Assembly: GCA_963771175.1 (NCBI GenBank)
Contig: CAVYSY010000028.1
Span: 32,001-96,000, forward strand
Reading direction: 5' to 3'
DNA length: 64,000 nucleotides
Origin: an uncultured delta proteobacterium
GTDB taxonomy: Bacteria > Myxococcota > Myxococcia > Myxococcales > Myxococcaceae
A program made the translations under genes and the position numbers. Below are positions 343 to 48,720 of this stretch, one piece after another. Each line of letters opens with the position of its first letter. Within the stretch, counting starts at the first letter, position 1. Below the pieces are notes generated by a model that searched no databases, was not told the origin of the DNA, and worked only from the letters and a program-made list of their open reading frames with translations.

Positions 343-385
343 GTGGAACGGCCTCGCGACGAACGCGCGGTCGCACAGGCCAGAA

Positions 386-6900: not shown

Positions 6901-7195
6901 CTTGAGGATGTTAACAACTCCTCTTGAGCCACCCTGCCTCTGACAGATTCCAAGGCCGCCGGCTCAGCAGGGATCGTGGCGGGTGCTGCAAGGGCCGCAA
7001 GGGCTTGGTTTGGTCTCATGTGGAGCACCCTCCCGGCCGTCAAGGAGCGCTCAACCGGGGAGACGCGGCAGCAGTACGGACAGCCCGAGCTCCGGAGAGT
7101 TTGGATTGGGCCGGAGTGGAGGCGGCGGGCTTCGGACCCGCCGCCCTTTTTCCTCGGCCTGCCTCGGGAAGGGTGTCGGGCCCTCCCCGAAGGGC

Positions 7196-16520: not shown

Positions 16521-17090
16521 CTAGGCGTTCTGCGGCGGCGGTCCACTCATCATGGTCGCGGCGCGGCGAGCCATCTCCTTCGGAGTGACGTTCTCCTTGT
16601 GGGTCGCGATCTGCCAGTCGTGGCCGAACGGATCCTTGACGCGCCCGTAGCGGTCTCCCCAGAACATGTCGGCCAGGGGCATCGAGACCTTCGCGCCCGC
16701 GGAGAGGGCCTGGTTGAACAGCGCGTCCGCGTCCTTCGTGTAGATGAGCATGCTCGCCGAGATGCCGCCGACGGTCTCGGGCGAGGAGGAGCCCATCGCG
16801 GGGAACTCGTCGCTGAGCATCACGATGGAGTCGCCGATCTTGATCTCCGCGTGCATGACCTTGCCCTCCGGACCCGCCATCCGGTTCAGCTCCTTGGCGC
16901 CGAAGGCCTTCTTGTAGAACTCGATCGCCTTGTCCGCGCCGCGCACCACGATGCTCGGCGTGACCACGTGATAGCCCTTCGGAATCGGCTGCACCTTCGC
17001 GCGCTTCTTCGCGGGCACCTTCTTGGCGACCTTCTTCGCCGCAGTCCGAACCCGCTCCGCTGCCTTCTTGGCTGCCTTCTTCAACGCCAT
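16521..17090 (-). CDS. VOC/glyoxalase (PhnB-like) protein with Lys/Ala-rich N-terminal extension
   Basis: AIEFYKKAFGA, MHAEIKIGDS, DMFWGDRYGRVKDPFGHDW. Confidence 0.88.
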   Translation of the reverse strand: MALKKAAKKAAERVRTAAKKVAKKVPAKKRAKVQPIPKGYHVVTPSIVVRGADKAIEFYKKAFGAKELNRMAGPEGKVMHAEIKIGDSIVMLSDEFPAMGSSSPETVGGISASMLIYTKDADALFNQALSAGAKVSMPLADMFWGDRYGRVKDPFGHDWQIATHKENVTPKEMARRAATMMSGPPPQNA

Positions 17091-25636: not shown

Positions 25637-25689
25637 AGAGCGGCCCCCCCCTTGTCGTCCCTCCGCGTGCGGTGACACCCTGCGCGGCA

Positions 25690-28600
25690 ATGACGCACTC
25701 CTGGACTGCCCGCTGTGCCCTGGCGCTGCTCGTGCTGCAACTCGCGAGCGCTTGTGATTCGAAGCCGCCCACTCCCCCTCCGGCCGACACGGACACTACC
25801 GCCCCGAGCACCCGGGCGAGCCCGGCCGGCGGCGCGTACACCGCGGATGTCACCGTCTCGCTGCTGTGCGACGACGGCACCGGCAGCGGCTGCGCGGCCA
25901 CGTACTACACCACCGACGGCTCCGAGCCCTCGCGCGGCTCGCCCACCTTCCGGGACGCGCTTCCCCTCTCGGCCAACACCACGCTCAAGTTCTTCTCGGT
26001 GGACAAGCAGGGCAACGCCGAGCCCGTGAAGTCCGAGCTGTACACCTTCACCTCCACCGGCGGTGACACGCAGCCGCCCACGGTGAGCGCCTCGCCCGTC
26101 GGGGGCACGTATGGCGGCGCGCGCACGGTGACGCTCTCCTGCGAGGACGCGGGCGGCTCCGGCTGCGCCGCCCTCCACTACACACTGGATGGAGCCATGC
26201 CGACGACGGGCTCGCCGCTCTACTCCGGCCCCCTCGCCCTCGCCTCCAACACCACGCTCAAGTTCTTCGCCGTGGATGGCGCCGGCAATGCCTCGCCCGT
26301 CAGCATCCAGGTGTACGTCATCGACACCACCGCCCCCACGACGCTCGTCTCTCTCCCGGGCGACGTCTACGCCCAGTCCCAGCAGGTGACACTCTCCTGT
26401 GACGACGCGGGCGGCAGCGGCTGCACGGCCACGTACTACACGGTGGACGGCTCCACGCCGACGACGGGCTCGCCCCGCTACACCGGCGCCCTCTCCCTCT
26501 CGGCCACCACCACGCTCAAGTTCTTCTCCGTGGACGCCGCCGGCAACCGCGAGTCCGTCCACACCGAGCGCTACGTCATCGACCTCCTCGCCCCCACCAC
26601 CACCGCCCGTCCCGCGGGTGGCGCGTACAACAGCCGGCAGGACGTGACGCTCTCCTGCAATGACGGCGTGGGCACCGGGTGCGCCGCCACGCACTTCACG
26701 CTGAACGGCTCCATGCCCACCACCCTCTCGCCCCGCTACACCGAGGGCACCGTCATTCCCATCTCGGCCAACACCACGCTGAAGTTCTTCTCCGTGGACG
26801 CCGCCGGCAACACCGAGCCCGTCCAGACGCAGACGTACTTCATCGACACCACCCCGCCCACCACCACCGCCAGCCCCGGGGCCGGCACCTATGGTGGGAC
26901 GCGCAACGTGACGCTCTCCTGTACCGACGACGCGGGCAGCGGCTGCAAGGTGACGTACTACACGACGAATGGCACCGCCCCCGGAGCGGGCTCGCCCCAG
27001 TACGAGGCGGGCAAGCCCATCGCCATCACCGCCAACACCGTGCTGCGCTTCCTCTCGGTGGACACCGCCGGCAACGCCGAGCCCGTGCAGGTGCTGGAGT
27101 ACAAGCTCGACGTCCTGCCGCCCGTCACCACCGCCTCGCCCCAGGGCGGCGCCTACAAGGCCGCGAGGGACGTGACGCTGGCGTGCGCGGATGCCACCAG
27201 CACATGCTCGGCCACGTACTACACGCTGGATGGCACCACGCCCGGCACCAACTCCCCGCGGTATGACGGCACGCCGCTGCACATCGCCACCAGTGCCACG
27301 CTGAAGTTCTTCTCCGTGGACGCGGTGGGCAACGCCGAGCCCGTGCACACCGAGGGCTATGTCATCGACACCGTGGTGCCCACCGTCTCGGCCAACCCGG
27401 CGGGCGGCTTCTTCCGTGGCACCCGCGGCGTGACGCTCTCGTGTGACGACGGCACGGGCTCGGGCTGCGTGGGCTTCATCTGGTACACCACCAACGGCTC
27501 CGAGCCCACCACCGCCTCGAGCGTCTACTCCGCCCCCCTCTCCCTCTCCGCCACCACCACGCTCAAGTTCTTCTCCAAGGACGCGGTGGGCAACGACTCG
27601 GCGGTGCGGACGGAGACGTACACCCTCGACGCCCAGAGCCCCACCACGTCGGCCAGCCCGCCGGGCGGCAGCGTCTCGGACACCGTCAACGTGACGCTCG
27701 CCTGCGACGACGCGGGCGGCTCGGGCTGCGACGGCACCTGGTACACGGTGGACGGCTCCACCCCCACCACGAGCTCCACGCGCTACGACTCCTCGGCCAT
27801 CTCCATCTCCGCGACCACCACGCTCAAGTTCTTCTCCGTGGACAAGGTCGGCAACGTCGAGCCCGTGCGCACCGAGACGTATGTGTTCCCAGACCCGGCC
27901 GCGGACACCTCGGCGCAGATCGCCGCCGTGCGCGCCGCGGAGGCGGGCCCGGTCGACCTCCCCATCCAGCGGGCGCTCGTCACCTACGTGAAGCCGCCGA
28001 CGGGCAACGACCCGGCCGGCTTCTTCCTCCAGGCGCAGAAGGATGGCCCAGCCCTCTTCGTCGTGGTGGACGCGAGCACGCTGTCCCCCTCGCCGCTTCC
28101 AGGTGACCGCGTGTCGCTGGTGGCCACCACCAAGGACGTGGTGGTCGGCCAGACGCGCGTAACGAGCCTCCAGTCCGGATCCTTCGTCGTGCACGGCCGG
28201 GGCGAGCCCCTGACGCCGCTGCTCTCCGACGCGAGCGCCGCGGACCTCATCACCCAGGTGGAGGACTACGAGAGCGAGTACCTCTCCGTCTCCGGCACGC
28301 TGAGCGGCACTTTCGGCTCCTCCGGCGCCGGGCACATGCAGGCGAGCCTGTCCACGGTGGGCAACCCCAACGCGCCGGGCGCCTTCACCAACCTGAAGCT
28401 GCGCATGCCCTCGCCGCTGCTCACGACGCTACAGGGCAGGTACGACCTCGCCCTGGGCTGCTCCGTCACCACCACCGGGCCGCTGTGGCGCTTCGGCACG
28501 ACGGTCCAGCCGTCCGCCTGGGTGGAGGAGGACCTGCAGGTGCTGAGCTGCCCCGCGCCCCGGCTGCTGTACGTGGTGCCCACCAGCGGCACCTCGCTCT

Positions 28601-29493
28601 CGTTGCGCTTCGATCGGCGCATCCGCCCGGAGAGCGTGCTCTCCAGCGGCGGCCAGTTCACCTTCGACAACGGGCTGGTGGCCACGAGCGCCACCGTGGT
28701 GGACACCGAGGTGCGGCTGACCACCTCCTCACAGGTGGCCGGGAGCGACTACACGCTGACGGTGGCCGGCACCGTGCAGGACGTCATGGGCACGGGCGTG
28801 GACGCGACGACCCGGAGCAAGTCCTTCGTCGGCTTCGAGAAGCCCGCCCTGCTGAACATCAACGAGGTGGCTCCCAATCTGAGCACCGGGATTCCCTCCG
28901 TCCAGCGAGACGTCGTGGAGCTGTATGTCGTCGAGTCCGGCAGCACCGTGAACATGACGCTGACGACGGACAACTTCGTCGTGGCGACGCTGCCCCGAGT
29001 GCAGGTGACGAAGGGCGACATCATCGTGGTCCACCTGAGCCCGGACACCGCGACGAACGGGGATGCGCCGGCCTCGGAGACGCTCGGCAAGGACGAGTAC
29101 CCCGAGGCCACCCATGGCGCCAACTACGACACCGCGTGGGACTTCCACGGCGCCTCCAACGGCTTCATCTCGTACACGAACGCGGTGCTGCGCGTGAAGG
29201 ATCCGGCGGGCACCACCCTGGACGCGGAGGCCTTCGCCCAGCCCTCCATGTCGCCCCCCGGCTTCCCCGCCCTGCTCCAGGCCCTCCAGGCCGAGGGGTT
29301 GTGGCAGCCCGCCGACTGCGGTGGGGCCCTGTGCACGTACAGCTCCGTCCCCTCGGCGCTCGACGTCTCCGCCAACTGGGCGGGCCTGCCCAACAGCCGG
29401 TCCACCACGGTGTACCGGATCAACCCGACCTATACCCGCTCGGCGGACGACTGGACCACGGGCCCGAGCTCCCTGGGCCTGCCCAACTGGTAG
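25690..29493 (+). CDS. Surface lipoprotein with 8 tandem chitobiase/beta-hexosaminidase C-terminal (Fn3-associated) repeats plus Ig-like and lamin-tail-like C-terminal domains
   Basis: Lipobox LASAC; eight ~80-aa units D..P...SP.GG.Y...V.L.C.D..GSGC..TYYT.DG..P..TLKFFSVD..GN.E; LNINEV motif in the last domain. Confidence 0.85.
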   Translation: MTHSWTARCALALLVLQLASACDSKPPTPPPADTDTTAPSTRASPAGGAYTADVTVSLLCDDGTGSGCAATYYTTDGSEPSRGSPTFRDALPLSANTTLKFFSVDKQGNAEPVKSELYTFTSTGGDTQPPTVSASPVGGTYGGARTVTLSCEDAGGSGCAALHYTLDGAMPTTGSPLYSGPLALASNTTLKFFAVDGAGNASPVSIQVYVIDTTAPTTLVSLPGDVYAQSQQVTLSCDDAGGSGCTATYYTVDGSTPTTGSPRYTGALSLSATTTLKFFSVDAAGNRESVHTERYVIDLLAPTTTARPAGGAYNSRQDVTLSCNDGVGTGCAATHFTLNGSMPTTLSPRYTEGTVIPISANTTLKFFSVDAAGNTEPVQTQTYFIDTTPPTTTASPGAGTYGGTRNVTLSCTDDAGSGCKVTYYTTNGTAPGAGSPQYEAGKPIAITANTVLRFLSVDTAGNAEPVQVLEYKLDVLPPVTTASPQGGAYKAARDVTLACADATSTCSATYYTLDGTTPGTNSPRYDGTPLHIATSATLKFFSVDAVGNAEPVHTEGYVIDTVVPTVSANPAGGFFRGTRGVTLSCDDGTGSGCVGFIWYTTNGSEPTTASSVYSAPLSLSATTTLKFFSKDAVGNDSAVRTETYTLDAQSPTTSASPPGGSVSDTVNVTLACDDAGGSGCDGTWYTVDGSTPTTSSTRYDSSAISISATTTLKFFSVDKVGNVEPVRTETYVFPDPAADTSAQIAAVRAAEAGPVDLPIQRALVTYVKPPTGNDPAGFFLQAQKDGPALFVVVDASTLSPSPLPGDRVSLVATTKDVVVGQTRVTSLQSGSFVVHGRGEPLTPLLSDASAADLITQVEDYESEYLSVSGTLSGTFGSSGAGHMQASLSTVGNPNAPGAFTNLKLRMPSPLLTTLQGRYDLALGCSVTTTGPLWRFGTTVQPSAWVEEDLQVLSCPAPRLLYVVPTSGTSLSLRFDRRIRPESVLSSGGQFTFDNGLVATSATVVDTEVRLTTSSQVAGSDYTLTVAGTVQDVMGTGVDATTRSKSFVGFEKPALLNINEVAPNLSTGIPSVQRDVVELYVVESGSTVNMTLTTDNFVVATLPRVQVTKGDIIVVHLSPDTATNGDAPASETLGKDEYPEATHGANYDTAWDFHGASNGFISYTNAVLRVKDPAGTTLDAEAFAQPSMSPPGFPALLQALQAEGLWQPADCGGALCTYSSVPSALDVSANWAGLPNSRSTTVYRINPTYTRSADDWTTGPSSLGLPNW

Positions 29494-30476: not shown

Positions 30477-31938
30477 ATGAGGGAGCGCGCCCCGATGTCT
30501 CCCACCGCCTCCTCGCGAATGCCGGGCCCCACCGCCTGGGCCGCGCTCTTCTTCCTCGGCCTCACCTCCGCCACCTGGTGGCCCCACTCCGACCTCGGAG
30601 ACTCGCAGCTCTACCAGGTCGTCTCCCGCCACATGGTCGAGGACGGAAGCTGGCTCGCCCTGCGCTACCTGCCGGACGTGCACGCGCGCTTCTTCGAGCA
30701 CCTGCCCTTCGGCTTCTGGCCCTTCGCCCTCGTCATCCGCCTCTTCGGCGAGGCCGCCCTGCGCCCCCTGTGCGCCGCCTTCTCCCTGGGCACCCTCCTG
30801 CTCACCGGCTCCGTCGCCCGCCGCGCCGCCGGTACCTGGGCCGGTGTCACCGCCATGCTGGTGCTCGCCCTCCCCGATGGGTTCTTCATCCGCGGCGGCC
30901 ATCCCTTCCTCGAGCCCCTCCTCCTCCTGCTCGCCACCGGCTCCGCCGTGCCCCTGTTGCTCGGCGTGCCGCGCCCGCGCGACTGGCTCGTCTGTGGGCT
31001 GCTCGCCGCCGCCGCCTGTGCCGTGAAGGGCCCTTTCGGGTTGTTGCCCTTCGCCGGAGCCGCCGTCGCCCGCGCCTTCGTCGAGCGCTCCTGGAAGGTG
31101 CTCATCGTCGGCACCCTCGTGGGCATCGCCGCCGCCGTGCCCACCGTGCTCTTCCTCGTCTTCAACGCGCAGTGGTGGGAGGGCTATGTCCGCCATCAGG
31201 TCCTCGCCTCCGCCACCGGTGAGCGCACCGACGGGCAGCTCTCCTGGTACATCCCCTTCCGCACCCTCGGCAGCCGCTTCTGGCCCGGGCTGCCGCTGCT
31301 CGCCGCGGGTGGGGTGCTCGCGCTCGGCCGGCCCGCTCGCGCCTTCCGCGCCCTCCTGCCCGAGGGCACCCGGGACGCGGCCGGAGTGCGCCGCTCCGCC
31401 CAGGTGCTCCTGCTCGCGAGCCTCTTCATCCTCACCGCGCTCTGCATCCCCGGGCGCAAGGTGTGGAACCACTCGCTCATCGCCTTCCCGCTGCTGGCCA
31501 TGCTCGTGGGCGTGGGGCTCGGCCCATGGCTGGAGGCCCGGCTCGCCTCCCCCACGCGAGAGCGCCGCGCCCGGCTCGGGCTGGCCGTGCTCGCACTCGT
31601 GGTGCTGGGCGCCTCCGCCGCCGGAGCGGGTCGACTGCTGTTTCCCCGGCCGTGCCCCGCCGCGGGCTCGCTCGCCCCGGCGCTCGCGGACGTGCCGCCC
31701 GGTGCCCATGTGTTGGTGGTGTCGCCGCGCCACGAGTGGACCACCGTGGCCGCGTTCGCCGTGGAGCGGCGCTGGTCTGCCGTGGCGCCTCACCGAGCTG
31801 GGCTCCGAGCGCGCCCCGGGTGGCCCCACCGAGGCCCGCGTGGCCTTCGTCGCGGACGGGGCTCCCGTGAGTGAGCCAGGCTGGCGCGAGGTGGGCCGGG
31901 ACGGTCGCTGGCGGCTGCTGCGCCGGCCTTCGCCCTGA
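30477..31938 (+). CDS. ArnT/GT39-like membrane glycosyltransferase; probable 1-bp frameshift near 31775
   Basis: GDSQLY...SR.M...G.W, FFEHLP, KGP motifs and many TM helices; alternate frame continues LPWRLTEL...LRRPSP* to 31938. Confidence 0.7.
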
Positions 31939-32035
31939 GCGCTCCCCAGCCAACACCGGGTGCACATTTCACGGTGGCGCGGGGGTGAAGCTGCTATCCC
32001 TTCGGGGCACGGCACGTCCGTGGCGAGGCCCTCCC

Positions 32036-32488
32036 ATGTCGAGCGATGACGCATTCCCCTCCGACCCGCGGCAGCTCTTGGAGAGCATCAACCTCTTCAT
32101 GAGCGAGTCCGTTCCGCACAACCACGCGCTGGGCTTGAGCGTGGTGGGGCTGGGGAAGGCGGAGGCCACCGTGCGACTGCCCTACTCGGACAGGCTGGTG
32201 GGCAACCCCGAGACGGGCGTGCTGCATGGCGGCGCGGTGACGACGCTCATCGACGCCACGTGCGGCATCGCCGTCTTCATGAAGCTGGCGCGCATGGCGC
32301 GCATCGCCACGTTGGACCTGCGCATCGACTACCTGCACCCGGCCACACCCGGGAGCGACCTGCTGGCCCGCGCCGAGTGCTACAAGCTCACGCGCACGGT
32401 GGCCTTCGTGCGAGCGCTGGCGCACCACGGGGACCCGGACAATCCGGTGGCCTCGGCGCAGGGCACCTTCATCATCGTGGAGGAGTGA
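32036..32488 (+). CDS. PaaI family (hotdog) thioesterase
   Basis: GNPETGVLHGG..TTLID, ATLDLRIDY. Confidence 0.88.
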   Translation: MSSDDAFPSDPRQLLESINLFMSESVPHNHALGLSVVGLGKAEATVRLPYSDRLVGNPETGVLHGGAVTTLIDATCGIAVFMKLARMARIATLDLRIDYLHPATPGSDLLARAECYKLTRTVAFVRALAHHGDPDNPVASAQGTFIIVEE

Positions 32489-32491
32489 GCC

Positions 32492-32950
32492 ATGGAGAGC
32501 ACGCCTCCGGGAACGCCGACCCGCATCGCCGAGCTCCTGCGCCACGTGCGCCAGACGGGCGACTACCGGCAGCTCACCGAGGTCATTCCCTACACGCGCT
32601 TCCTGGGCATCGGGGTGGAGAACACCACCGGCGAGGTGCTGTGCCGGATGCGCTATACGCCCATGCTGATCGGCAACAGCGCCATCCCCGCGCTGCACGG
32701 GGGCACCCTGGGCGCGCTGCTGGAGTCGGCCGCCATCTTCGAGCTGCTCCTGCGCACCCAGGTGGAGCGAGTGCCCAAAATCATCACCATCACGGTGGAC
32801 TTCCTGCGCTCGGGGCGGCCGCAGGACACGCTGGCCAAGGCGACCATCACCCGGCTCGGGCGGCGCGTGGCCAACCTCCAGGTGCAGGCCTGGCAGGAGG
32901 ACCGCGGCAAGCCCATCGCCAGCGCCAACGCCCTGTTCCTGCTGTCGTGA
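32492..32950 (+). CDS. PaaI family (hotdog) thioesterase
   Basis: GNSAIPALHGG..GALLE, PKIITITVDFLR; 3 bp after the previous gene. Confidence 0.88.
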   Translation: MESTPPGTPTRIAELLRHVRQTGDYRQLTEVIPYTRFLGIGVENTTGEVLCRMRYTPMLIGNSAIPALHGGTLGALLESAAIFELLLRTQVERVPKIITITVDFLRSGRPQDTLAKATITRLGRRVANLQVQAWQEDRGKPIASANALFLLS

Positions 32951-32961
32951 GGGAGGGGCCG

Positions 32962-33102
32962 CCGGGCGCGTTTTTCCAAAACCTGTCCGACAGTCGGACA
33001 GGTTTGCGCGAAACGCGCCCGGGAGGTGGAGGCCCGTCGGGCGCGGTTCTCCGCAACCTGTACACTTAGTGGACAAGTTCGCGCGAAACGCGCCCGGGAG
33101 GG
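32962..33102. repeat. Two tandem REP-like palindromic elements (copies C and D)
   Basis: Copy C has the same 27-bp palindrome as copy A (32979-33005); copy D (33038-33102) has a degenerate core and a shared gcgcgaaacgcgcccgggagg right arm. Confidence 0.8.
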
Positions 33103-33260
33103 CGTCCCGTCACCGGGTCTCCTGGGTTAGAGCTGCTGGCCTTCGTGCCGCACGGGCCGGTGCTGCTGCTCAGGCTGCTGCTCCACGAGCGCCCGGAGCG
33201 TCATCAGCCGGCGGACCTTTTGCTCCTTGTTCCCGCCGCGCGCGTCCGCGAAAGAAGCCC

Positions 33261-33307
33261 GCAAAAGCGAAGGGCGGGGCCCCCGTGAGGAGCACCCGCC
33301 CTGCTTC
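33261..33307 (-). terminator. Intrinsic terminator of duplicated gene, copy 1
   Basis: Minus strand agggcggg...ccccgccct stem followed by tcgctttt. Confidence 0.7.
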
Positions 33308-33325
33308 AACCACCCGCCGGACTGC

Positions 33326-33895
33326 TTAGCGGATGTTGCCGATGATGGACTTCTGCGTCTCACCGCGCATCTTGATGACGTTGCTGATCATCTGGACCAT
33401 CTCGGAGTAGTTCTGCAGCTCGTACTGGGCCTTGAGGCGGGCGGCGTCCTTCGGGTCCAGGCCCTCGAGCGACTTCTGCTGGGTGGCCGACAGGCCCTTG
33501 CCCGTCTGCGCCATGGAGATGGCGTTGTCCCAGATGCCGCCGCCGCTGGCCGCGGTGGTCACCGCGTTGTTGATGGCGCCCGCCTCGACAGGCGAACGGG
33601 TCGGGATGCTCGGGGCCGGAGCCGCACCACCGGTCGCACCGCCCACGGGAGCGGGGGTGGTGGGCAGGTTGGTGCTCACGCCACCCTGGGTCGCGGAGGG
33701 CGAGGGCAGGCCGAGCGCCTTGGCAACCTGCTCCAGCAGGCTCTTCTTGGCACCCTCGAAGCCGGACTTGAAGAACTCGCCGATGACGTTCTTCAGCGCG
33801 TCCTTGACGCCGTTGAGAACCGTGCCGCCGATGCCGCCGCTGCCGAGGATCTTGCCGAGGTCAATCTTGGGAAGCTGGAAGCCGCCGATCTTCAT
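33326..33895 (-). CDS. 189-aa protein with T3SS needle (SctF)-like C-terminal helix, copy 1
   Basis: Clean ORF with GGAG RBS; ends AQYELQNYSEMVQMISNVIKMRGETQKSIIGNIR; the ORF is secure, the function is inferred. Confidence 0.75.
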   Translation of the reverse strand: MKIGGFQLPKIDLGKILGSGGIGGTVLNGVKDALKNVIGEFFKSGFEGAKKSLLEQVAKALGLPSPSATQGGVSTNLPTTPAPVGGATGGAAPAPSIPTRSPVEAGAINNAVTTAASGGGIWDNAISMAQTGKGLSATQQKSLEGLDPKDAARLKAQYELQNYSEMVQMISNVIKMRGETQKSIIGNIR

Positions 33896-33948
33896 TTGGG
33901 TCTCTCCGGGTGGAGGGCAGCGCCAGCGCCGCCCTGCTTACAAACAGA

Positions 33949-33975
33949 TTATCGCAAAGGCCGTCCGGGAGTTTC
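33949..33975 (-). promoter_or_regulatory. Putative sigma28 (FliA/WhiG)-type promoter, copy 1
   Basis: Minus strand GAAA-N15-TGCGATAA versus consensus TAAA-N15-GCCGATAA; conserved in both duplicates. Confidence 0.55.
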
Positions 33976-34050
33976 CTGCTGATTTATTTCTCCCGATTTT
34001 TCTCCGAATCCCCCGGCTGAAGCGGTGCGGCAGGCGGGGAGGCCGAACCC

Positions 34051-34097
34051 GCAAAAGCGAAGGGCGGGGCCCCAGTGAGGAGCACCCGCCCTGCTTC
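34051..34097 (-). terminator. Intrinsic terminator of duplicated gene, copy 2
   Basis: Same stem and U-rich tail as copy 1, with small loop changes. Confidence 0.7.
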
Positions 34098-34114
34098 ACC
34101 ACCCGCCGGACTGC

Positions 34115-34684
34115 TTAGCGGATGTTGCCGATGATGGACTTCTGCGTCTCACCGCGCATCTTGATGACGTTGCTGATCATCTGGACCATCTCGGAGTAGT
34201 TCTGCAGCTCGTACTGGGCCTTGAGGCGGGCGGCGTCCTTCGGGTCCAGGCCCTCGAGCGACTTCTGCTGGGTGGCCGACAGGCCCTTGCCCGTCTGCGC
34301 CATGGAGATGGCGTTGTCCCAGATGCCGCCGCCGCTGGCCGCGGTGGTCACCGCGTTGTTGATGGCGCCCGTCTCGACACCCGCGCGAGTCGGGATGCTC
34401 GGCGCGGGGGCCGCACCACCGGTCGCACCGCCCACCTGGGCGGGGGTGGAGGGCAGGTTGGTGCTCACGCCACCCTGGGTCGCGGAGGGCGAGGGCAGGC
34501 CGAGCGCCTTGGCAACCTGCTCCAGCAGGCTCTTCTTGGCACCCTCGAAGCCGGACTTGAAGAACTCGCCGACGACGTTCTTCAGCGCGTCCTTGACGCC
34601 GTTGAGAACCGTGCCGCCGATGCCGCCGCTGCCGAGGATCTTGCCGAGGTCAATCTTGGGAAGCTGGAAGCCGCCGATCTTCAT
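34115..34684 (-). CDS. 189-aa protein with T3SS needle (SctF)-like C-terminal helix, copy 2
   Basis: ATG at 34684; differs from copy 1 at 6 residues, 5 of them in the Pro-rich linker. Confidence 0.75.
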   Translation of the reverse strand: MKIGGFQLPKIDLGKILGSGGIGGTVLNGVKDALKNVVGEFFKSGFEGAKKSLLEQVAKALGLPSPSATQGGVSTNLPSTPAQVGGATGGAAPAPSIPTRAGVETGAINNAVTTAASGGGIWDNAISMAQTGKGLSATQQKSLEGLDPKDAARLKAQYELQNYSEMVQMISNVIKMRGETQKSIIGNIR

Positions 34685-34736
34685 TTGGTCTCTCCGGGTG
34701 GAGGGCAGCGCCAGCGCCGCCCTGCTTACAAACGGA

Positions 34737-34763
34737 TTATCGCAAAGGCCGTCCGGGAGTTTC
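34737..34763 (-). promoter_or_regulatory. Putative sigma28-type promoter, copy 2
   Basis: Identical GAAA-N15-TGCGATAA; similarity between the copies ends just upstream of the -35 element. Confidence 0.55.
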
Positions 34764-34799
34764 CTGCCCGAATTCTTTTTCTTTTTCCGGCCCCTTCTA

Positions 34800-34995
34800 C
34801 CCGCCCGCGCTGGCGGAGGAGCGCGGGGAGGCGCAGGAAGACGGCCTCCTCGAGCCGCACCCGGGGCCAGGCCGCTCGGGCGGAGGCGAGCAGCTCCGCG
34901 AGCACCGGCTCCAGCGAGGGCAGCTCCGCGTAGCCCCGCGGCTCCGGCCGCGAATGGAGGGCGAGCAGGCGGGCGAGCAGAAGCTGTGAGGCCAT
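34800..34995 (-). pseudogene. Possible N-terminal remnant of a Myxococcales-type sigma-70/ECF factor
   Basis: LEPVLAELLASARAAWPRVRLEEAVFLR resembles the N-terminal extension of myxobacterial ECF sigma factors; no region 2 or 4 follows. Confidence 0.35.
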
Positions 34996-35203
34996 GGGAG
35001 CGGACCCTGGCGCGATTACAGCGTGGAACGGGACTTTCCTCCGTTCTTACAGGCTCCGGGAAGGCGGGGTGAGCCGGGAGCCCGTGGGCCCCCGAGCAGA
35101 GGGAGCCCGCGCTTCCCCCTCGGGGTCCCCGGCACAACCCATGCTTGCACCTCCCCGACGCCGCGGGGGCGAGGGCGGCTCTCGGGCGCGTGTCGGGGGT
35201 GGC

Positions 35204-35824
35204 ATGGGGGTGAGGGAGCTGAAGGAAAAGGCGCTGGACCTCTACGCGCGGAGGAAGTTCGCGGACTGCGCGCGCACCTACGCCAAGCTGCTCGAGCTGG
35301 AGCCCAGGGACCCGCACCTGTACGTGCGCCACGCCGAGGCCTGGCGGCGCGCGGGAGATCGGCGCAAGGCGATCTCCTCCTACCGGACGGCGGCGGAGCT
35401 GCTGCTGCAGCTCGGGTGCGAGGCGCGGGCCCGGGCGGCGTTGAAGGTGGCGCTGGAGTTGGATCCCCGGGACTCGGAGGTGGCGCACGCACTGGCCCGA
35501 CTGACGCCCACGTACCCCCAGGGCAGGCCGGCCTCGCGCATTCCCGAGGACAAGCGGGACATGGTGGAGCTGCACACGCGGGCGGCGAACGTCCCGGGGC
35601 AGCGCGCCCTGCCCCCGGCACCGGCCTCGCCCGCGGCGCCCCTGCCCTCTCCGGCGGAGGTGCGGCGGCTCTCGGCGAATACCCTCGCCCTGAGGGCCGC
35701 ACCGGGGACGCGCTGGGTGGTGGTGTCCTCGCGCACACCCCTGACGGCCTACGAGGTGGATGAGCTGGAGCGGGTGATGACGCGGGAGTTCACCCTGGAA
35801 GTGACGCTCACTCCCGAGTCTTGA
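35204..35824 (+). CDS. TPR-containing protein
   Basis: VRELKEKA..LY...KFA.CA..Y..L..LEP.D helical repeats. Confidence 0.7.
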   Translation: MGVRELKEKALDLYARRKFADCARTYAKLLELEPRDPHLYVRHAEAWRRAGDRRKAISSYRTAAELLLQLGCEARARAALKVALELDPRDSEVAHALARLTPTYPQGRPASRIPEDKRDMVELHTRAANVPGQRALPPAPASPAAPLPSPAEVRRLSANTLALRAAPGTRWVVVSSRTPLTAYEVDELERVMTREFTLEVTLTPES

Positions 35825-36188: not shown

Positions 36189-36386
36189 CTCCCAACCCCC
36201 CTTGAGTCTCCGGGGAAAGGAATGGGAATTCTTCAGTGAAGGGGCAACTGCGGGCGCTCGGGAGCGAACATCTCACGGGCACCGGCCGTTGACCGGTCGC
36301 AGGGCTGGCCGCTCGTTTTGTCCGTCAGCTCCCACAAGACGCTTCCGTCGCTACCGTCGGTTGAAGGACTCCGCGGGGAAATCGCC

Positions 36387-37739
36387 ATGAGCTGGACGCA
36401 AAGGTTGGAGAAGGTCGCGGAGGGGCATTTCGTCCTGCCGAAGACGAAGACGATGCGGGTGGATGCCCACCTGTTCCTCTCGGACAAGCTGCTGTGGGGC
36501 GAGGGCCCCGAGCTGCCCGGTCTCGAGGAGGCGGTGTTCGACCAGGTGGTGAACGCGGCGTCCTTCCCGGGGGTGACCCGGGTGGCGGTGACGCCGGACT
36601 GTCACGTGGGCTACGGCGTGCCCATCGGCACGGTGGTGGAGACGGAGGGAATCCTGCTCCCCACGGCGGCCGGCTACGACATCGGCTGCGGCATGGTGCA
36701 GCTCAAGACGACGCTCACCGCCGAGGACGTGGCCGACAAGGCGAAGCGCCGGCAGTGGATTGACGAGGTGACGAAGCGCATCGCCGTGGGCGTGGGGGCG
36801 TCGCGGGTGCAGAAGCAGCGGAGCATCAACGCGCGCACGTTCGCCGAGGTGGTGCGCCATGGGGCCAAGGCCCTGGGCCGCAACGCGTCCACCACCGAGC
36901 GCGACTTCATCCCGGTGGAGGACGACCGGGTGGACATCCCCGAGCGGGCCTACGACAAGAGGGACCAGTTGGGCAGCCTCGGGGGCGGCAACCACTTCAC
37001 CGAGATGCAGGTGGACGAGGAGGGCCGCGTGTGGGTGATGTTGCACACGGGCAGCCGGGGCTTCGGGTGGAACATCGCGAAGCACTACTTCGTCGAGGGC
37101 GCGGCGGCGCTGGGGCTGAGCAAGCGCAGCGAGGACTTCATCTGGCTGGACGCGGACAGCCGGCTGGGGCGCGAGTACTGGAACCTGCACAACATGGCGG
37201 CCAACTTCGCGGTGGCCAACCGGCTCCTCATCGGCGAGGCGGTGTGCGCGGCGCTCGAGGAGGTGTTCGGCGGGACGGCGGACATCTATTACGAGATTTC
37301 CCACAACCTCATCCAGAAGGAGGCGGGGAAGTTCGTGGCGCGCAAGGGGGCGACGCGGGCCTTCCCGGGCGGGCACCCGGCGCTGCGCCGGACGCAGTGG
37401 GAGAAGTCGGGGCACCCCATCCTGATTCCGGGCTCGATGGAGACGGGCAGTGCCATCCTCTTCGCGCAGGAGGGAGCGGAGGCCTCCATCTACTCGGTGA
37501 ACCACGGCGCGGGGCGGCGGCTGTCGCGCGGCGAGGCCCGGCGGGTGCTCAACCAGTCCGAGACGGACCAGCGCATGTCCGAGGCGGGCATCCTGCTCAA
37601 CACGCGCACGACGCCGCTGGACGAGTCGGGGCCCTGCTACAAGAACCTCGACGACGTGCTGGAGACGGTGGAGATGGCGGGTCTGGCCAAGGTGGCCCGG
37701 CGCCTCAAGCCCGTGGCCTGCATCAAGGGCGCGGACTGA
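36387..37739 (+). CDS. rtcB: RtcB family RNA ligase
   Basis: PDCHVGYG, GYDIGCG, GSLGGGNHF, HTGSRG, SHN, RKGAT, PGSM, HGAGR (guanylylated His), terminal IKG. Confidence 0.92.
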   Translation: MSWTQRLEKVAEGHFVLPKTKTMRVDAHLFLSDKLLWGEGPELPGLEEAVFDQVVNAASFPGVTRVAVTPDCHVGYGVPIGTVVETEGILLPTAAGYDIGCGMVQLKTTLTAEDVADKAKRRQWIDEVTKRIAVGVGASRVQKQRSINARTFAEVVRHGAKALGRNASTTERDFIPVEDDRVDIPERAYDKRDQLGSLGGGNHFTEMQVDEEGRVWVMLHTGSRGFGWNIAKHYFVEGAAALGLSKRSEDFIWLDADSRLGREYWNLHNMAANFAVANRLLIGEAVCAALEEVFGGTADIYYEISHNLIQKEAGKFVARKGATRAFPGGHPALRRTQWEKSGHPILIPGSMETGSAILFAQEGAEASIYSVNHGAGRRLSRGEARRVLNQSETDQRMSEAGILLNTRTTPLDESGPCYKNLDDVLETVEMAGLAKVARRLKPVACIKGAD

Positions 37740-37775
37740 CCTCCCCTCTCCTTAGGGAGCGGCGGCTCGCCCCCC

Positions 37776-37840
37776 CCTTATTTAAGCCCGCTTTCCTAAA
37801 GGCCGGCCTTATTTAAACAAGAGCGGCATTGCTTAAATAG
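37776..37840. promoter_or_regulatory. AT-rich operator-like repeats upstream of the Fic gene
   Basis: ccttatttaa at 37776 and 37807 plus inverted ttaaatag at 37833-37840. Confidence 0.45.
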
Positions 37841-37864
37841 CGCCCCGGTGTTTCGCTCCTCCTC

Positions 37865-39055
37865 ATGAGTTCGGAGCGATCGCAGCACCTGGAAGGTCGC
37901 CTCGGCCGTTACGTCGAAACCGTAGCGGCTGGCGAAACGGTTCGCGCATTTGTACCGCCTGCGCTTCCCCCCCAGCCGGAAATCGATGTCTTGAGTCTAC
38001 TGCCGCGTCTGAGCGCGGCCGAGCGTGCGCTCGGTCGGCTGGATGGTATTACCGTCCTGCTACCGAGCCAGGAACTCTTCCTCTACATGTACGTACGTAA
38101 GGAAGCAGTCCTCTCCTCTCAGATCGAGGGCACGCAGTCGACGTTGTCCGACCTGCTTCGCTTCGAGACCGAGGCGCAGGAAGGCCAACCCATCGACGAC
38201 ATCCGAGAGGTGTCCAACTACGTCGATGCCATGATGTATGGCCTTGACCGGCTTCGGGAATTGCCGCTCTCGCTGCGGCTCGTGCGAGAGATGCACACGC
38301 GGCTCCTGCGCAGCGGGCGTGGCGGCACGAAGAACCCGGGAGAGTTCCGCCGTTCGCAAAACTGGCTCGGCGGCACCCGGCCCGGCAACGCCATGTTCGT
38401 GCCGCCCCCAGTCAGCGAGCTGGACGCCTGTCTCGATAGCCTGGAGCGGTTCATGCACGAGAACACCTCGCGCCTGCCGGCCCTCATCAAGGCGGGGCTC
38501 CTTCACGTCCAGTTCGAGACGATCCATCCCTTCCTGGACGGCAACGGCCGCATCGGGCGTCTGCTCGTGACCCTCTACCTGTGCGTGGAGGACGTGCTGA
38601 AGAAACCCCTGCTCTATCTGAGCCTCTACCTGAAGACACATCGGGCCGACTACTACCGCTTGCTCCAGGAGGTGCGCGAGCGTGGCGCCTGGGAGGCCTG
38701 GCTCGAATTCTTTCTCAACGGTGTCGCGGAGACCGCCAATCAGGCCTTCGACGCCGCGACTCGGATCGTCGACCTGTTCAAGCGGGACAGAGAACGGATC
38801 ACCGCGCGAAGTGAGCGGGCTGGTTCGTCCCTGCGCGTACATGACCTACTGCAGCAAAACCCGTTCGCCACGGCGAACACGCTGGTCGCGAGCACGGGCC
38901 TCAGCGCGCCAACCGTCAACGCGGCTCTGGCCGACCTGGGGCGGCTCGGCATCGTCGACGAAGTCACCGGACGCCGCCGCGGTCGCGTCTTCGCCTACCG
39001 GGAGTATCTCGACATCCTGAGCGAAGGCACCGCGCCCCTGCCGACCGGCGAGTGA
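37865..39055 (+). CDS. Fic family protein (Fic_N + Fic + C-terminal HTH)
   Basis: EAVLSSQIEGT inhibitory motif, HPFLDGNGRIGR catalytic motif, C-terminal wHTH-like segment. Confidence 0.92.
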   Translation: MSSERSQHLEGRLGRYVETVAAGETVRAFVPPALPPQPEIDVLSLLPRLSAAERALGRLDGITVLLPSQELFLYMYVRKEAVLSSQIEGTQSTLSDLLRFETEAQEGQPIDDIREVSNYVDAMMYGLDRLRELPLSLRLVREMHTRLLRSGRGGTKNPGEFRRSQNWLGGTRPGNAMFVPPPVSELDACLDSLERFMHENTSRLPALIKAGLLHVQFETIHPFLDGNGRIGRLLVTLYLCVEDVLKKPLLYLSLYLKTHRADYYRLLQEVRERGAWEAWLEFFLNGVAETANQAFDAATRIVDLFKRDRERITARSERAGSSLRVHDLLQQNPFATANTLVASTGLSAPTVNAALADLGRLGIVDEVTGRRRGRVFAYREYLDILSEGTAPLPTGE

Positions 39056-39217
39056 AGACCCAGGTGCTGAGCCGCAACGCGTCCACCCAGGAGCGCGACC
39101 TGAGGGACGGGGAGCGGACCTCCCGGGTTGACTCGGTGTAGGCCCCCTCTCTCCCTGGGGTGAGGGACTTCCCCACTCGTCTCACCCCGGGGGCGCGCGC
39201 TAGAGTGGGAAACCGAG

Positions 39218-40117
39218 ATGAATGCGCCGGCCACCGTCCCCTCCCCCACGCCCTCCCGTGAGGCCGAGCTCACACGTGCCGAGGCCGAGCTCGCCAGCCA
39301 AGAAGCCCGCCTCGCGGAACAGCTCAACCGGGAGGCCGCGGAGACCGAAACCCTCGTGCGCCGGGTGACGGAGCTGCGGCAGGAGGTGTCGCGGCTCCCC
39401 CCCGAACGCCAGGACGATGATGCCGTGCGCACCGCGAAAGACCGGCTCCTGTCGGCCGTGATGAACACGGACTCGACGGAGGACGCGCGGGAGCGGGCGC
39501 TGGCCGCGCGCCACGAGGCACTGGAGGCCCGTCTCCGGTCGAGCAAGGAGGCGCAGGCGGCGCTGAAGCTGCTGCAGCAGCTCAACACCCAGGCACGCCA
39601 GGAGCTGACCGAGGCCGAGTCGGGGCTGAAGCGCGCGGCGGAGGCGGCGGCGAAGGCCCAGCGCGAGCGCGAGACGGCGGCGAAGCGCGAGGCCACCCAG
39701 GCCCGTCAGGCGGCGCTCCAGGCCCGTCAGGTGGTGCTCTCCCAGGGCAACGTCACCCTCCCCGAGCCGAGCCCGCTGGGCGCACGGCTGTCGCGCGTCC
39801 GGATGCAGGCGATGATCGACCTGCGCAGCGACTCGAACTTCTTCACGGGCTTCTCCACGAACATCAGCGAGGGCGGCGTCTTCGTCGCGACGGTGCAGGC
39901 GGTGCCGCGCGGGACGACGGTGGACCTGGACTTCACCCTGCCCGGCGGCCGGCCAATGAAGGTGTCCGGGGTGGTGCGCTGGACGCGCGAGGTGAACGAC
40001 AAGACGCCCGAGCTGATGCCGGGGCTCGGCGTACAGTTCACCCAGCTGCCTCCGGAGGTGGCCTCGGCCATCTCGGACTTCGTGGCCACGCGCGAGCCGC
40101 TGTTCTTCCCGGACTGA
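39218..40117 (+). CDS. Coiled-coil protein with C-terminal TIGR02266-type PilZ-like domain
   Basis: SDSNFFTGFSTNISEGGVFVAT, G.VRW.RE, PGLGVQF, REPLFF. Confidence 0.85.
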   Translation: MNAPATVPSPTPSREAELTRAEAELASQEARLAEQLNREAAETETLVRRVTELRQEVSRLPPERQDDDAVRTAKDRLLSAVMNTDSTEDARERALAARHEALEARLRSSKEAQAALKLLQQLNTQARQELTEAESGLKRAAEAAAKAQRERETAAKREATQARQAALQARQVVLSQGNVTLPEPSPLGARLSRVRMQAMIDLRSDSNFFTGFSTNISEGGVFVATVQAVPRGTTVDLDFTLPGGRPMKVSGVVRWTREVNDKTPELMPGLGVQFTQLPPEVASAISDFVATREPLFFPD

Positions 40118-48135: not shown

Positions 48136-48705
48136 CTACACCTCCTCGAAATACGTCCCGGTGGCGCCGATGCGCTCCAGTGCGTGCTTGATCTCCTGGG
48201 AGACGATGAGAGCGACCGTCCATCCCCAGGTGCGGAATACCTTGGCGTCTCCTACTTTCGAGGGATCGATCCGCATCCCGTAGACATCCCGGTACTGCCC
48301 GACCTTCTCGGGTCGTCCATCCTCCGGGGTCCAGATCTCCACCTCCTTGCATGCCGCATCATCGATGCACCGGAGGGTCTTGGTCGCGACGAGGATGCAG
48401 AACTGCTCCGGCTGACCTTCGACCTCCACGGGGAAGAGCTGCACGTCCTCGGGAGCAAGCTCCGCGAACACGGTGGCCACCCGGACGTGGACCAGGGGAA
48501 TGGCGAGACCCGCGAGAGAGAAATCAAGCGGCTTGCCAGGACGGTCAATGGCGATCTTCAGGCGTCCCGGGTTGGGAAGACGCCTTCCGTCCGTGAACAT
48601 CCACGGGTCGTCCACTTCCCGGCCACTCGGATCCGCAGGGTTGTGGAGATACCAGCGACCCGGCACATAAACGTCATCGGAAAGGTCAAAGTACCGCTTT
48701 GGCAT
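48136..48705 (-). CDS. Imm11 family (DUF1629) immunity protein
   Basis: PGRWYL, GKPLDFS, DVQLFPV.V, CIDD, W.PEDGRPEKVG.YR, IVS..IK; directly downstream of an AHH toxin. Confidence 0.8.
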   Translation of the reverse strand: MPKRYFDLSDDVYVPGRWYLHNPADPSGREVDDPWMFTDGRRLPNPGRLKIAIDRPGKPLDFSLAGLAIPLVHVRVATVFAELAPEDVQLFPVEVEGQPEQFCILVATKTLRCIDDAACKEVEIWTPEDGRPEKVGQYRDVYGMRIDPSKVGDAKVFRTWGWTVALIVSQEIKHALERIGATGTYFEEV

Positions 48706-48720
48706 GTGAGGACCCTGACG

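Follow-up and report, generated by a model that had tools for sequence, protein, structure and literature searches.

Two neighbouring genes on a 64,000-nucleotide stretch of DNA (hereafter the window) encode proteins ending in a segment that resembles SctF, the subunit of type III secretion system (T3SS) needles, and thereby raise the question whether myxobacteria possess a needle-class protein. According to the available text of four papers (PMC3459982, PMC10433427, PMC10849154, PMC12075869), the Myxococcus T3SS* is needle-less or lacks a needle homologue, as the original prediction for this locus had stated. In the non-flagellar T3SS tree, the Myxo-type T3SS occupies the root position and, according to the accessible part of PMC3459982, has lost SctF; the accessible parts of PMC3459982 and PMC10433427 describe it as having no secretin for a needle to cross. 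Prey lysis by M. xanthus needs this system, of which the conduit and substrates are given as unknown in the available text of PMC10433427 and PMC12075869. The literature on SctF in myxobacteria (Abby and Rocha) and on T3SSs in Archangium yielded, in its available text, no earlier description of such genes.

The tandem gene pair and its flanking elements

The ORFs are a genuine pair of tandem paralogues. The ORF list, the translations and a repeat search all agree with the originally predicted arrangement of two 189-aa ORFs in a tandem duplication of ~789 bp: direct repeats of 300, 84 and 51 nt with 98% identity recur at spacings of 789, 788 and 790 nt, respectively, and the unit of the 789-nt tandem repeat occupies positions 33258-33979 and 34048-34767. 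In the ORF list, the ORF of copy B forms the 3' portion of a spurious read-through ORF of 654 aa. The spacer between the copies shows weak similarity to the DNA upstream of copy B, and the high-identity tract is therefore shorter than the repeat period. The GC3 of the needle-like ORFs is 0.90, versus 0.70 for the window. A further 189-aa ORF (16521-17090) was rejected as a third paralogue, its sequence being unrelated to those of P0001 and P0002, and a tblastn search of plasmid sequences with P0001 returned no match.

Table 1. Positions of the two gene copies, their domains and their flanking elements in the window.
Feature	Copy	Position	Strand	Basis or remark
ORF, 189-aa SctF-like protein P0001	A	33326..33895	-	ORF list
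N-domain, residues 1-65	A	33701-33895	-	
Linker, residues 66-117	A	33545-33700	-	
C-domain, residues 118-189	A	33329-33544	-	
Divergent linker patch, ORF nt 235-313	A	33583..33661	-	13/14 nt differences
Terminator-like GC-rich hairpin and T-rich tail, 3' of ORF	A	33258..33303	-	Hairpin scan
Repeated leader, 84 nt	A	33896..33979	-	Repeat search and alignment
GGAAAC-N16-CGATAAT in leader	A	33948-33976	-	
Hairpin in leader	A	33914-33935	-	
RBS GGAGAG in leader	A	33902-33907	-	
Spacer, 68 nt	between A and B	33980..34047	-	A-rich in gene sense
ORF, 189-aa paralogue P0002	B	34115..34684	-	ORF translation and repeat comparison
N-domain	B	34490-34684	-	
Linker	B	34334-34489	-	
C-domain	B	34118-34333	-	
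Matching linker patch	B	34372-34450	-	ORF alignment
Terminator-like hairpin and T-rich tail, 3' of ORF	B	34048..34093	-	Hairpin scan
Repeated leader	B	34685..34767	-	Repeat search and alignment
GGAAAC-N16-CGATAAT in leader	B	34736-34764	-	
Hairpin in leader	B	34702-34723	-	
RBS in leader	B		-	

Each copy had been described as a complete unit of promoter, 5' hairpin, RBS, ORF and terminator. This description stood for the hairpin, the RBS, the ORF and a terminator-like hairpin, and did not stand for the promoter, as a sigma-70 scan returned 0 sites. Both ATGs are preceded, within 84 nt, by a hairpin and a GGAGAG RBS, and past each stop codon lies a GC-rich hairpin followed by TTCGCTTTTGC. The terminator-like hairpin of copy A is kept 3' of copy B and of the paralogues at two related loci (L002 and L003, described below). 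The leader hairpin is kept in an alignment of four copies, in which a T-to-C change at L002 makes a G.U pair G-C (pairing read from the alignment). The element GGAAAC-N16-CGATAAT, common to copies A and B and one paralogue elsewhere, may be considered a candidate promoter. An Rfam search of positions 33000-35100 gave no match.

Copies A and B differ at 14 nt of the 570-nt ORF, which rules out a single gene collapsed or duplicated during assembly and upholds the original view on this point. The ORF alignment also reproduces the six residue changes noted earlier (I38V, T79S, P83Q, S101A, P102G and A105T), of which one is located in the N-domain and five in the linker. Thirteen of the 14 nt differences fall within 78 nt, a clustering equalled in 0 of 100,000 permutations. 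The identity of the C-terminal ~80 aa had been taken as a sign of constraint, an argument that fails, since the final 72 codons are identical in DNA too, with 0 synonymous differences. Together with the clustered differences, this identical DNA makes gene conversion or a recent duplication, rather than selection, the probable source of the identical C-termini. Recombination between the two copies probably keeps both nearly identical. Evidence for constraint is provided by the L003 paralogue, in which 46/46 residues are identical to P0001 despite 6 nt differences. The pN/pS against paralogues (0.57-0.67) is subject to noise and to the confounding effect of gene conversion, and serves as a caution only.

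Protein architecture and the SctF-like C-terminus

The N-domain is conserved (mean pairwise identity of 61% in the close group of homologues) and amphipathic (hydrophobic moment 0.55), and has LGLPSP at its end, while the linker is variable, of low complexity and rich in Pro, Gly, Ala and Thr. The C-terminal ~50-70 residues make up a putative helix-turn-helix with homology to SctF, and the protein ends in ...IIGNIR. In a Kyte-Doolittle hydropathy scan, which is not a signal-peptide predictor, no Sec-type hydrophobic segment was found, in agreement with the original statement that a Sec signal is missing, and no segment reached transmembrane-like hydropathy; the highest mean was 0.83 with a 19-residue span and 1.44 with a 12-residue span, the second value coming from a Gly-rich stretch.

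Judged by sequence, homology to SctF needle subunits covers the C-terminal ~50-70 residues, so that the likeness first proposed by eye from PrgI and MxiH is borne out statistically. Residues 140-188 of P0001 and P0002 match positions 20-71 of the 71 in PF09392 (T3SS_needle_F), with E=1.3e-5 and E=1.5e-5, respectively. This was the sole Pfam family for either protein at E<=10, with no match to an EspA/SseB or SctI model. For P0001 the score of 25.7 bits lies under the curated cut-off of 29.4, as does that against TIGR02105 of NCBIfam (20.5 bits, cut-off 41.7; E=4.7e-4); the relative P0040 scores 30.4 bits against PF09392. In the family alignment of 37 sequences, PF09392 was found at E<=0.01 in 14 members, and other T3SS families were absent.

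Profiles built from the family were compared with the PDB. Profile A2 matched EsaG (7y6c_F, E=4.5e-6) and PrgI (E=0.0036-0.059), and profile A5 matched the same two proteins (E=8.4e-6 and E=7.3e-4 to 0.012, respectively), the best 7 of its 12 matches all being needle subunits. The alignments to EsaG and PrgI reach the terminal R; the EsaG chain comprises residues 33-73 of this needle protein, as given in the available text of PMC9426511. Against MxiH the family profiles reached only E=0.8, and the best match of a single-sequence PDB search had E=0.2. In the nearest ESM Atlas clusters, PF09392 is present in a minority of members (10-17%). Across the 37 aligned sequences, N187 is invariant, Q157, Q161 and R189 are each found in at least 90%, and the ends of all 37 fall in one alignment column, give or take one residue.

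The comparison with SctF that had been proposed was thus positive by profile search and gave no significant match with Foldseek, where the best match of a low-confidence C-domain model was PrgI (6dwb_A, E=1.7, TM 0.48, not significant) and 0/79 matches had E<=0.001. The AF2 model of the whole protein had a pLDDT of 50, which was too poor for a fold search, and that of the C-domain had 67; helices were placed, at this low confidence, at residues 121-130, 137-143 and 148-188.

The sequences form a coherent family with the C-terminal domain common to all, ranging in length from 71 to 272 aa; 24 homologues of about 175-190 aa constitute the close group, and seven members are needle-sized (71-78 aa). 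A motif x-x-L-P-x-P is located at residues 54-67 in 23/37 members. All named relatives retrieved in the homologue searches belong to Archangium, and the same searches found no member in Myxococcus. Within the searches made, SctV orthologues occur in many genera and named family members in Archangium only, which suggests that, within the reach of these searches, the distribution of the family does not follow that of the T3SS across the suborder.

Genomic context and comparison with known systems

As originally predicted, the two genes are orphans in the window, where 0 of the 69 other ORFs scanned match a T3SS family. A search for related loci with a narrow alignment (A4) led to one Archangium sp. 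MAG, in which three loci (L001-L003) were confirmed from 18 candidate stretches; none of them is syntenic with the window. No T3SS gene lies beside the paralogue at L001 and L002. At L003, a contig of 7.4 kb, downstream of the 3' end of a paralogue come a SycD/LcrH-like TPR gene (TIGR02552, E=7.5e-24), sctV (TIGR01399, 816 bits, cutoff 692) and an FHA/YscD-type gene. Only 46 residues of this paralogue are visible at the contig end, identical to the C-terminal 46 aa of P0001, and the copy carries its own terminator. The L003 SctV is 87% identical to that of M. xanthus DK1622, 85-95% identical across the Cystobacterineae and 92-95% identical to that of Archangium species. The reported contig of a family member in A. 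lipolyticum is 189,008 nt long, as is that of SctV in this species, and the two genes probably share it.

The originally suggested link to the myxobacterial T3SS finds its evidence in the L003 paralogue, which abuts the LcrH-like chaperone gene and sctV; because of this adjacency, the most plausible reading of the orphans is that they are dispersed substrates of this system from the SctF family, in which a conserved N-domain is joined to a variable linker. A complex prediction for the L003 chaperone with residues 1-100 gave a score of 0.00 and a mark of 0.32, was run without controls and speaks neither for nor against binding. A TPR protein encoded in the window (35204-35824) was rejected as a chaperone candidate, its likeness to the L003 chaperone being that of TPRs in general (27% over 52 aa); its LcrH_SycD score is weak (E=0.0021).

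With SctF proteins (PrgI, MxiH, EsaG/SsaG/EscF) the family shares the alignment of the C-terminal 50-70 residues through the terminal Arg, a predicted turn (LDPKD) ahead of the long last helix, and the pattern ...SN...K...IIxNxR at the extreme C-terminus. It differs in several respects. SctF has about 70-90 aa, whereas P0001 and P0002 have 189 aa, with an N-terminal extension of 117 residues composed of the amphipathic domain and the linker, and both score under the curated PF09392 and TIGR02105 cut-offs. SctF is encoded by a single gene inside a T3SS operon, whereas the Archangium genes are dispersed, multi-copy and tandem. Unlike in SctF systems, no YscE/YscG-type co-chaperone genes were seen, and the host T3SS type is described, in the available literature, as lacking a secretin.

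EspA has about 190 aa, and pilins are hypervariable. The family resembles EspA/SseB and the Hrp pilins (HrpA, HrpY) by analogy, in that these larger-than-needle subunits are exported, polymerise via a C-terminal coiled-coil and expose variable parts, but its Pfam match is to PF09392 only; moreover, EspA extends an EscF needle, whereas no separate short needle gene was identified in this genome. The SctV at L003 connects the family with the Myxo-type T3SSs (MXAN_2434-2464, T3SS*; MXAN_5643-5654, T3SS(2)), although M. xanthus is described in the accessible literature as having no needle homologue and Archangium carries an SctF-like family.

T3SS* is described in the available text of PMC10433427 as having LcrH-like chaperone genes, and according to that of PMC4536800 translocators attach to class II chaperones through a PxLxxP motif. 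As in class II (SycD/LcrH/IpgC) substrates and translocators, LGLPSP (residues 61-66) sits about where PxLxxP lies, with positions 3 and 6 matching, and an LcrH-like gene adjoins the L003 copy; unlike in translocators, hydrophobic membrane segments are absent and motif position 1 is Leu, not Pro. The class II chaperone gene precedes the substrate genes in known systems, whereas the LcrH-like gene at L003 follows the paralogue instead of preceding it.

Possible roles of the family

Our main explanation, to which we give about an even chance, is that the proteins are three-part, needle-class substrates of the Myxo-type T3SS that form a filament or stub; export, polymerisation and surface display are what we infer. 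The Myxo-type T3SS would export the protein as a needle-class substrate, and the C-domain would assemble into a needle- or EspA/Hrp-like filament or a short stub. The outer face of this structure would carry the N-domain and linker, because the subunit N-terminus points outward in solved needles. Dispersed paralogues that differ in linker and N-domain would provide quantity, diversity or both. Against this explanation count the scores under the cut-offs, the single-sequence PDB result, the weak AF2 models and the non-significant Foldseek matches, as well as a size more than twice that of any characterised SctF. The lack of a T3SS gene in the window, L001 and L002, the restriction of named members to Archangium, and the position of the L003 copy at a contig end, with its own terminator and 46 visible residues, weigh in the same direction, and, as a caution, the pN/pS exceeds what would be expected for a core structural subunit.

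The same SctF homology and L003 context would also fit a T3SS-associated protein that forms no filament, its C-terminus serving as an apparatus or inner-rod cap, plug, adaptor or regulator, or as the export or assembly handle of a secreted protein with an active N-domain, for instance an amphipathic one acting on prey envelopes. The reported lack of a secretin for needle passage (PMC3459982 and PMC10433427, in their available text) speaks for such a role, as do the conservation and amphipathicity of the N-domain, suggestive of a function of its own, and the resemblance of x-x-L-P-x-P to the PxLxxP motif, with that chaperone class as the L003 neighbour. However, translocator-type transmembrane helices are absent, the first motif position is not Pro, and the members of 71-78 aa consist of the needle-like domain alone, which fits a structural subunit better than a cargo handle; we hold this alternative to be rather unlikely. 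More unlikely still, in our estimation, is a T3SS-independent helical protein of the Archangium lineage, cytoplasmic or exported otherwise, in which the SctF-like hairpin was kept or arose by convergence and the adjacency at L003 is coincidental. It would explain why four of the five copies seen (the window pair, L001 and L002) have no T3SS neighbour, why the L003 copy has a terminator of its own, why scores stay under the family cut-offs and why many other genera carrying the same SctV provided no named member. All significant profile matches, however, are to needle subunits, the domain is invariably the last part of the protein, as it is in SctF, sctV and an LcrH-type gene would be improbable neighbours by chance in a genome of ~12-13 Mb, and the A. 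lipolyticum member is probably on the sctV contig.

That the pair is an assembly artefact, or consists of decaying, functionless duplicates, might be suspected from the 98% identity of the copies and from the MAG contig that breaks inside a family member at L003, as often happens at repeats. We consider this scarcely credible, given the nt differences in one patch and the unique spacer, two intact ORFs with RBS, terminator and high GC3, the 24 homologues of similar length, and a leader hairpin kept in four copies, including the G.U to G-C change at L002.

A more far-reaching reading is that in some lineages the myxobacterial T3SS does have a needle, and that Archangium builds a needle- or Hrp-like filament from dispersed, recombining SctF-family paralogues, the N-domains and linkers of which coat the filament and are perhaps matched to prey. 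We propose this tentatively, as possible but doubtful. If true, the deepest-branching non-flagellar T3SS lineage would have kept SctF or acquired it again, which would contradict the scenario of its loss in Myxo systems and offer a conduit for the unknown lysis effectors. The subunit would also be of an unusual form, with a long N-terminal domain for display and several gene copies that gene conversion keeps alike. An SctF-like family with one member adjoining sctV and an LcrH-type gene offers a definite candidate, be it as a first substrate or as a filament, and makes the needle-subunit question testable in a soil bacterium that is non-pathogenic. Part of the family is already known to automated annotation: newer Pfam labels tag some of its members, with a precomputed PF09392.17 label on 8/24 close homologues.

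The SctF-like C-terminal domain

The two proteins of the tandem pair (P0001, copy A; P0002, copy B) comprise an N-domain (residues 1-65), a linker (66-117) and a C-terminal domain (118-189), which on sequence comparison is very probably homologous to SctF, the subunit that forms the needle in type III secretion systems (T3SS), as the original prediction had proposed. The sole Pfam family found in P0001 was T3SS_needle_F, at E=1.3e-5 and with 25.7 bits where the gathering score is 29.4, residues 140-188 matching profile positions 20-71 of 71; the NCBIfam SctF model scored far under its cut-off (E=4.7e-4), and a PDB search with the single sequence was weak (E=0.2). When 1.84 billion representatives were scanned exhaustively with HMMER, 29 relatives emerged at E<=0.001; a word-indexed search gave 24, mostly of 175-190 aa. 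Of these relatives, 37 could be aligned as a coherent family, with total lengths of 71-272 aa and seven members consisting of the needle-sized domain alone (71-78 aa). A family-wide block, roughly LS..Q...L...dP.e.ar..AQ..lQN....m..iSN..k......siI.NiR, forms the end of the protein in all members, N187 being invariant.

Run against the PDB, profiles from two family alignments matched little apart from needle subunits of solved structure. EsaG of Edwardsiella piscicida was matched at E=4.5e-6 and 8.4e-6, PrgI at 7.3e-4 to 0.059 and MxiH at 0.8, with alignments reaching the terminal Arg. Chain 7y6c_F, named a co-chaperone in the PDB table, was rejected as such: in the passages of PMC9426511 consulted, EsaG is the needle protein and the entry contains its residues 33-73. 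PF09392 was matched at E<=0.01 by 14 of the 37 members and other T3SS families by none; a precomputed PF09392.17 label was present on 8 of 24 close homologues. In the ESM Atlas, P0001 was nearest to clusters of hypothetical proteins of ~200 aa, with PF09392 in 10-17% and Myxococcota and Pseudomonadota as commonest phyla, and a short family member fell among SctF and HrpF clusters. AlphaFold2 predicted helices at 26-61, 105-117, 121-130, 137-143 and 148-188 (pLDDT 50 for the full length, 67 for the C-terminal domain). In Foldseek, which the original prediction had named as a check, the PrgI needle filament ranked first but without significance (E=1.7, TM 0.48; no match at E<=0.001), and the predicted structure adds little to the case for SctF.

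The tandem pair and its divergence

Two 189-aa ORFs in a tandem duplication of ~789 nt had been predicted and were confirmed; a repeat search of the window gave direct repeats of 300, 84 and 51 nt (98% identity) at spacings of 789, 788 and 790 nt. In the ORF list, the copy B ORF was concealed within a read-through of 654 aa, of a kind that often arises artefactually at the 70% G+C of the window. In a DNA alignment the high-identity tract extended from ~70 nt past the stop codon to 84 nt ahead of the ATG. Ahead of each copy stand a hairpin and a GGAGAG ribosome binding site (RBS), and after its stop come a GC-rich hairpin and then TTCGCTTTTGC; of the complete unit originally described, these parts were found, but a sigma-70 scan revealed no promoter. 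An Rfam search of 33000-35100 gave no match. Consistent with the claimed lack of a Sec signal peptide, a simple hydropathy script detected no stretch with the hydrophobicity of a signal peptide or a transmembrane helix (highest value 0.83 over 19 residues).

Features of the tandem-pair region (window positions) and of locus L003 (positions within that locus)
Feature	Position	Strand	Remarks
Copy A	33326-33895	-	189-aa ORF
Copy B	34115-34684	-	189-aa ORF
High-identity tract	33258-33979 (copy A) and 34048-34767 (copy B)		DNA alignment; identity drops outside
Spacer between copies	33980-34047		68 nt; weakly resembles sequence upstream of copy B
Two adjacent 4HBT-fold thioesterase genes	31871-32950	+	205 and 152 aa; end just ahead of the repeat region
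RtcB RNA ligase, Fic/DOC protein with HTH domain, PilZ-domain protein	36318-40117	+	row downstream of the TPR gene
L003, TPR protein			188 aa; first gene after the copy; best match SycD/LcrH chaperone model, E=7.5e-24, below cut-off
L003, sctV			next; TIGR01399, 816 bits, above cut-off
L003, CarboxypepD_reg-domain protein	within 3816-6945		next
L003, double-FHA protein with YscD-type cytoplasmic domain	within 3816-6945		next; 374 aa; possible SctD of this system
L003, Tgl/PilW-like TPR protein (TPR lipoprotein-like)	within 3816-6945		next

Around the pair, a 30-nt inverted repeat (32962-33022, 87% complementary) lies between the thioesterase gene and copy A, and GGACA(G/A)GTT(T/C)GCGCGAAACGCGCCCGGGAGG occurs in region 32962-33101 as two direct copies, 75 nt apart, whose 21-nt core is found twice in the window (two matches in 0 of 100 shuffles). 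Two short ORFs without Pfam match may derive from a gene that the pair has split, or may be high-GC noise: one of 89 aa (P0179, 34726-34995, minus strand) extends into the copy B leader, and one of 78 aa (33127-33363, minus strand) overlaps copy A at its 3' end.

Between the two ORFs 14 of 570 nt differ and, as originally counted and placed, six residues (I38V, T79S, P83Q, S101A, P102G, A105T), five of them in the linker. Thirteen of the 14 differences are confined to 78 nt of the linker (0 of 100,000 random placements were equally clustered); the N-domain has one, and the last 216 nt, leader and terminator have almost none. In this patch pS was 0.14 and pN 0.06, with pS = 0 outside it. Such a pattern is what gene conversion leaves behind, or a recent duplication in which one patch was exchanged, and the identical C-termini, originally taken as a sign of constraint, are therefore uninformative on selection. 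The evidence for constraint comes instead from the L003 copy in another genome, which over the last 46 codons differs from copy A at 6 nt and has the same 46 residues. Compared with the more distant paralogues, the noisy pN/pS values of 0.67 (L001) and 0.57 (L002) are higher than would be expected of a core component under strong conservation.

Paralogues and their genomic context

A genome scan with the family identified three loci, L001, L002 and L003, all within one Archangium sp. MAG. The L001 and L002 paralogues (74% and 54% identity) are orphans without T3SS neighbours or synteny with the window. In the window, two scans of the other ORFs (35 + 34) gave no T3SS family match among the 69, and the neighbours of the pair are two 4HBT thioesterases, a TPR protein, RtcB, a Fic protein and a PilZ protein. 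The L003 contig opens partway through a family member, so that its last 46 codons are visible; after the stop codon comes the terminator hairpin that the window copies also have.

The SctV encoded next to this copy shares 92-95% identity with the A. violaceum, A. gephyra and A. lipolyticum proteins, 87% with the one from M. xanthus DK1622, and 85-93% with those across Myxococcus, Corallococcus, Pyxidicoccus, Hyalangium, Stigmatella, Cystobacter and Melittangium; because of this 85-95% identity, it is assigned to the conserved Myxo-type T3SS. In M. xanthus, passages of PMC10196010 place T3SS*, the system used in prey killing, at MXAN_2434-2464 and T3SS(2) at MXAN_5643-5654. L003 could correspond to either of these loci; its LcrH-like gene fits the T3SS* description in PMC10433427. 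In A. lipolyticum, the contig listed for a family member and that listed for SctV are both 189,008 nt long and probably one and the same. Named family members come from Archangium only, although the L003-type SctV occurs in many genera; among the named matches of the word-indexed search, which needs shared words, none was from M. xanthus. Upstream of the L001 paralogue (48-8462, minus strand) stands an unusual set of three large genes, one with a Tubulin_2 domain (E=2.3e-54) and one with an MrfA Zn-binding domain.

Both window copies, L001 and L002 retain the leader hairpin GGGCGGC-N6-GCYGCCC and the RBS; pairing read from the alignment shows, for L002, a T-to-C change that turns a G.U pair into G-C. 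Window copies and L001 also have in common GGAAAC or GGAAC, 16 nt, and CGATAAT, which, set against consensus sequences, looks like an ECF-sigma type promoter. HrpL exemplifies ECF control of a T3SS pilin, and this promoter reading is a lead only.

The N-terminal extension and possible roles

Within the close group the N-domain has 61% mean pairwise identity; it includes a strongly amphipathic helix (residues ~26-53, hydrophobic moment 0.55) and ends in LGLPSP. The motif x-x-L-P-x-P was found within residues 54-67 in 23 of the 37 family members, also in distant ones with otherwise different N-termini. It resembles the PxLxxP by which translocators bind class II chaperones, such as PELPKP in CopB and PELKAP in IpaB (passages of PMC4536800), but position 1 in LGLPSP is Leu. 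The linker, rich in Ala, Pro, Thr and Gly, is least conserved (30% identity).

We propose that the protein would be a needle-class substrate of the Myxo-type T3SS, assembling through its SctF-like hairpin. In solved needles (PrgI structures) the subunit is oriented with its N-terminus on the outside of the needle and its C-terminus bordering the lumen; since the N-terminus faces outside, the extension would be sterically compatible with assembly and might coat the filament, several diverged paralogues providing variety and the tandem pair amount. That the protein is a T3SS substrate or component is reasonably probable, and that it forms a true filament a slightly unfavourable bet. Against the needle-substrate reading stand the scores below curated cut-offs, the lack of a significant structural match, the four of five copies seen without T3SS neighbours and the restriction of named members to Archangium. 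A non-polymerising T3SS substrate or adaptor, with the N-domain as active part, is unlikely but deserves weight: the N-domain is conserved and carries the amphipathic helix and a motif resembling the chaperone-binding one, but the members of 71-78 aa, made up of the needle-like domain alone, fit a structural subunit better. Less likely still is a protein independent of T3SS, for which the orphan copies have to be set beside the sctV-linked one. An artefact or decaying duplicates would be highly improbable: the copies are 98% identical, but their 14 nt differences are concentrated in one patch and both ORFs are intact.

A literature search on SctF in myxobacteria returned Abby and Rocha alone, who reported Myxo systems without SctF, which 'should have been found', and concluded that it was lost in the lineage (PMC3459982). 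As the original prediction stated, T3SS* is called needle-less, without needle or translocon homologues, in passages of PMC10433427, PMC10849154 and PMC12075869; for papers on the T3SS in Archangium, no needle protein is named in the titles and abstract openings, or in the passages of one of them. These searches thus gave no earlier description of SctF-family proteins that have a long N-terminal extension and are encoded by multi-copy dispersed genes; in one genome such a gene is linked to a T3SS type believed to have none.

Elsewhere in the window, a 1455-aa ORF (25126-29493, plus strand) has eight CHB_HEX_C_1 / Fn3_assoc repeat pairs (E=3.8e-133), its start being uncertain because a Ser/Thr kinase-TPR gene call (22685-25636) overlaps it at that call's 3' end. 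The ORF at 52649-53638 (minus strand) matches TsiV (E=1.1e-40), the immunity protein that type VI systems pair with VRR-NUC toxins, with no toxin gene identified beside it. An AHH (HNH/EndoVII) nuclease-domain protein (48721-50073, minus strand), directly followed by an Imm11 immunity-family ORF (48136-48720), looks like part of a polymorphic toxin-immunity pair with it.
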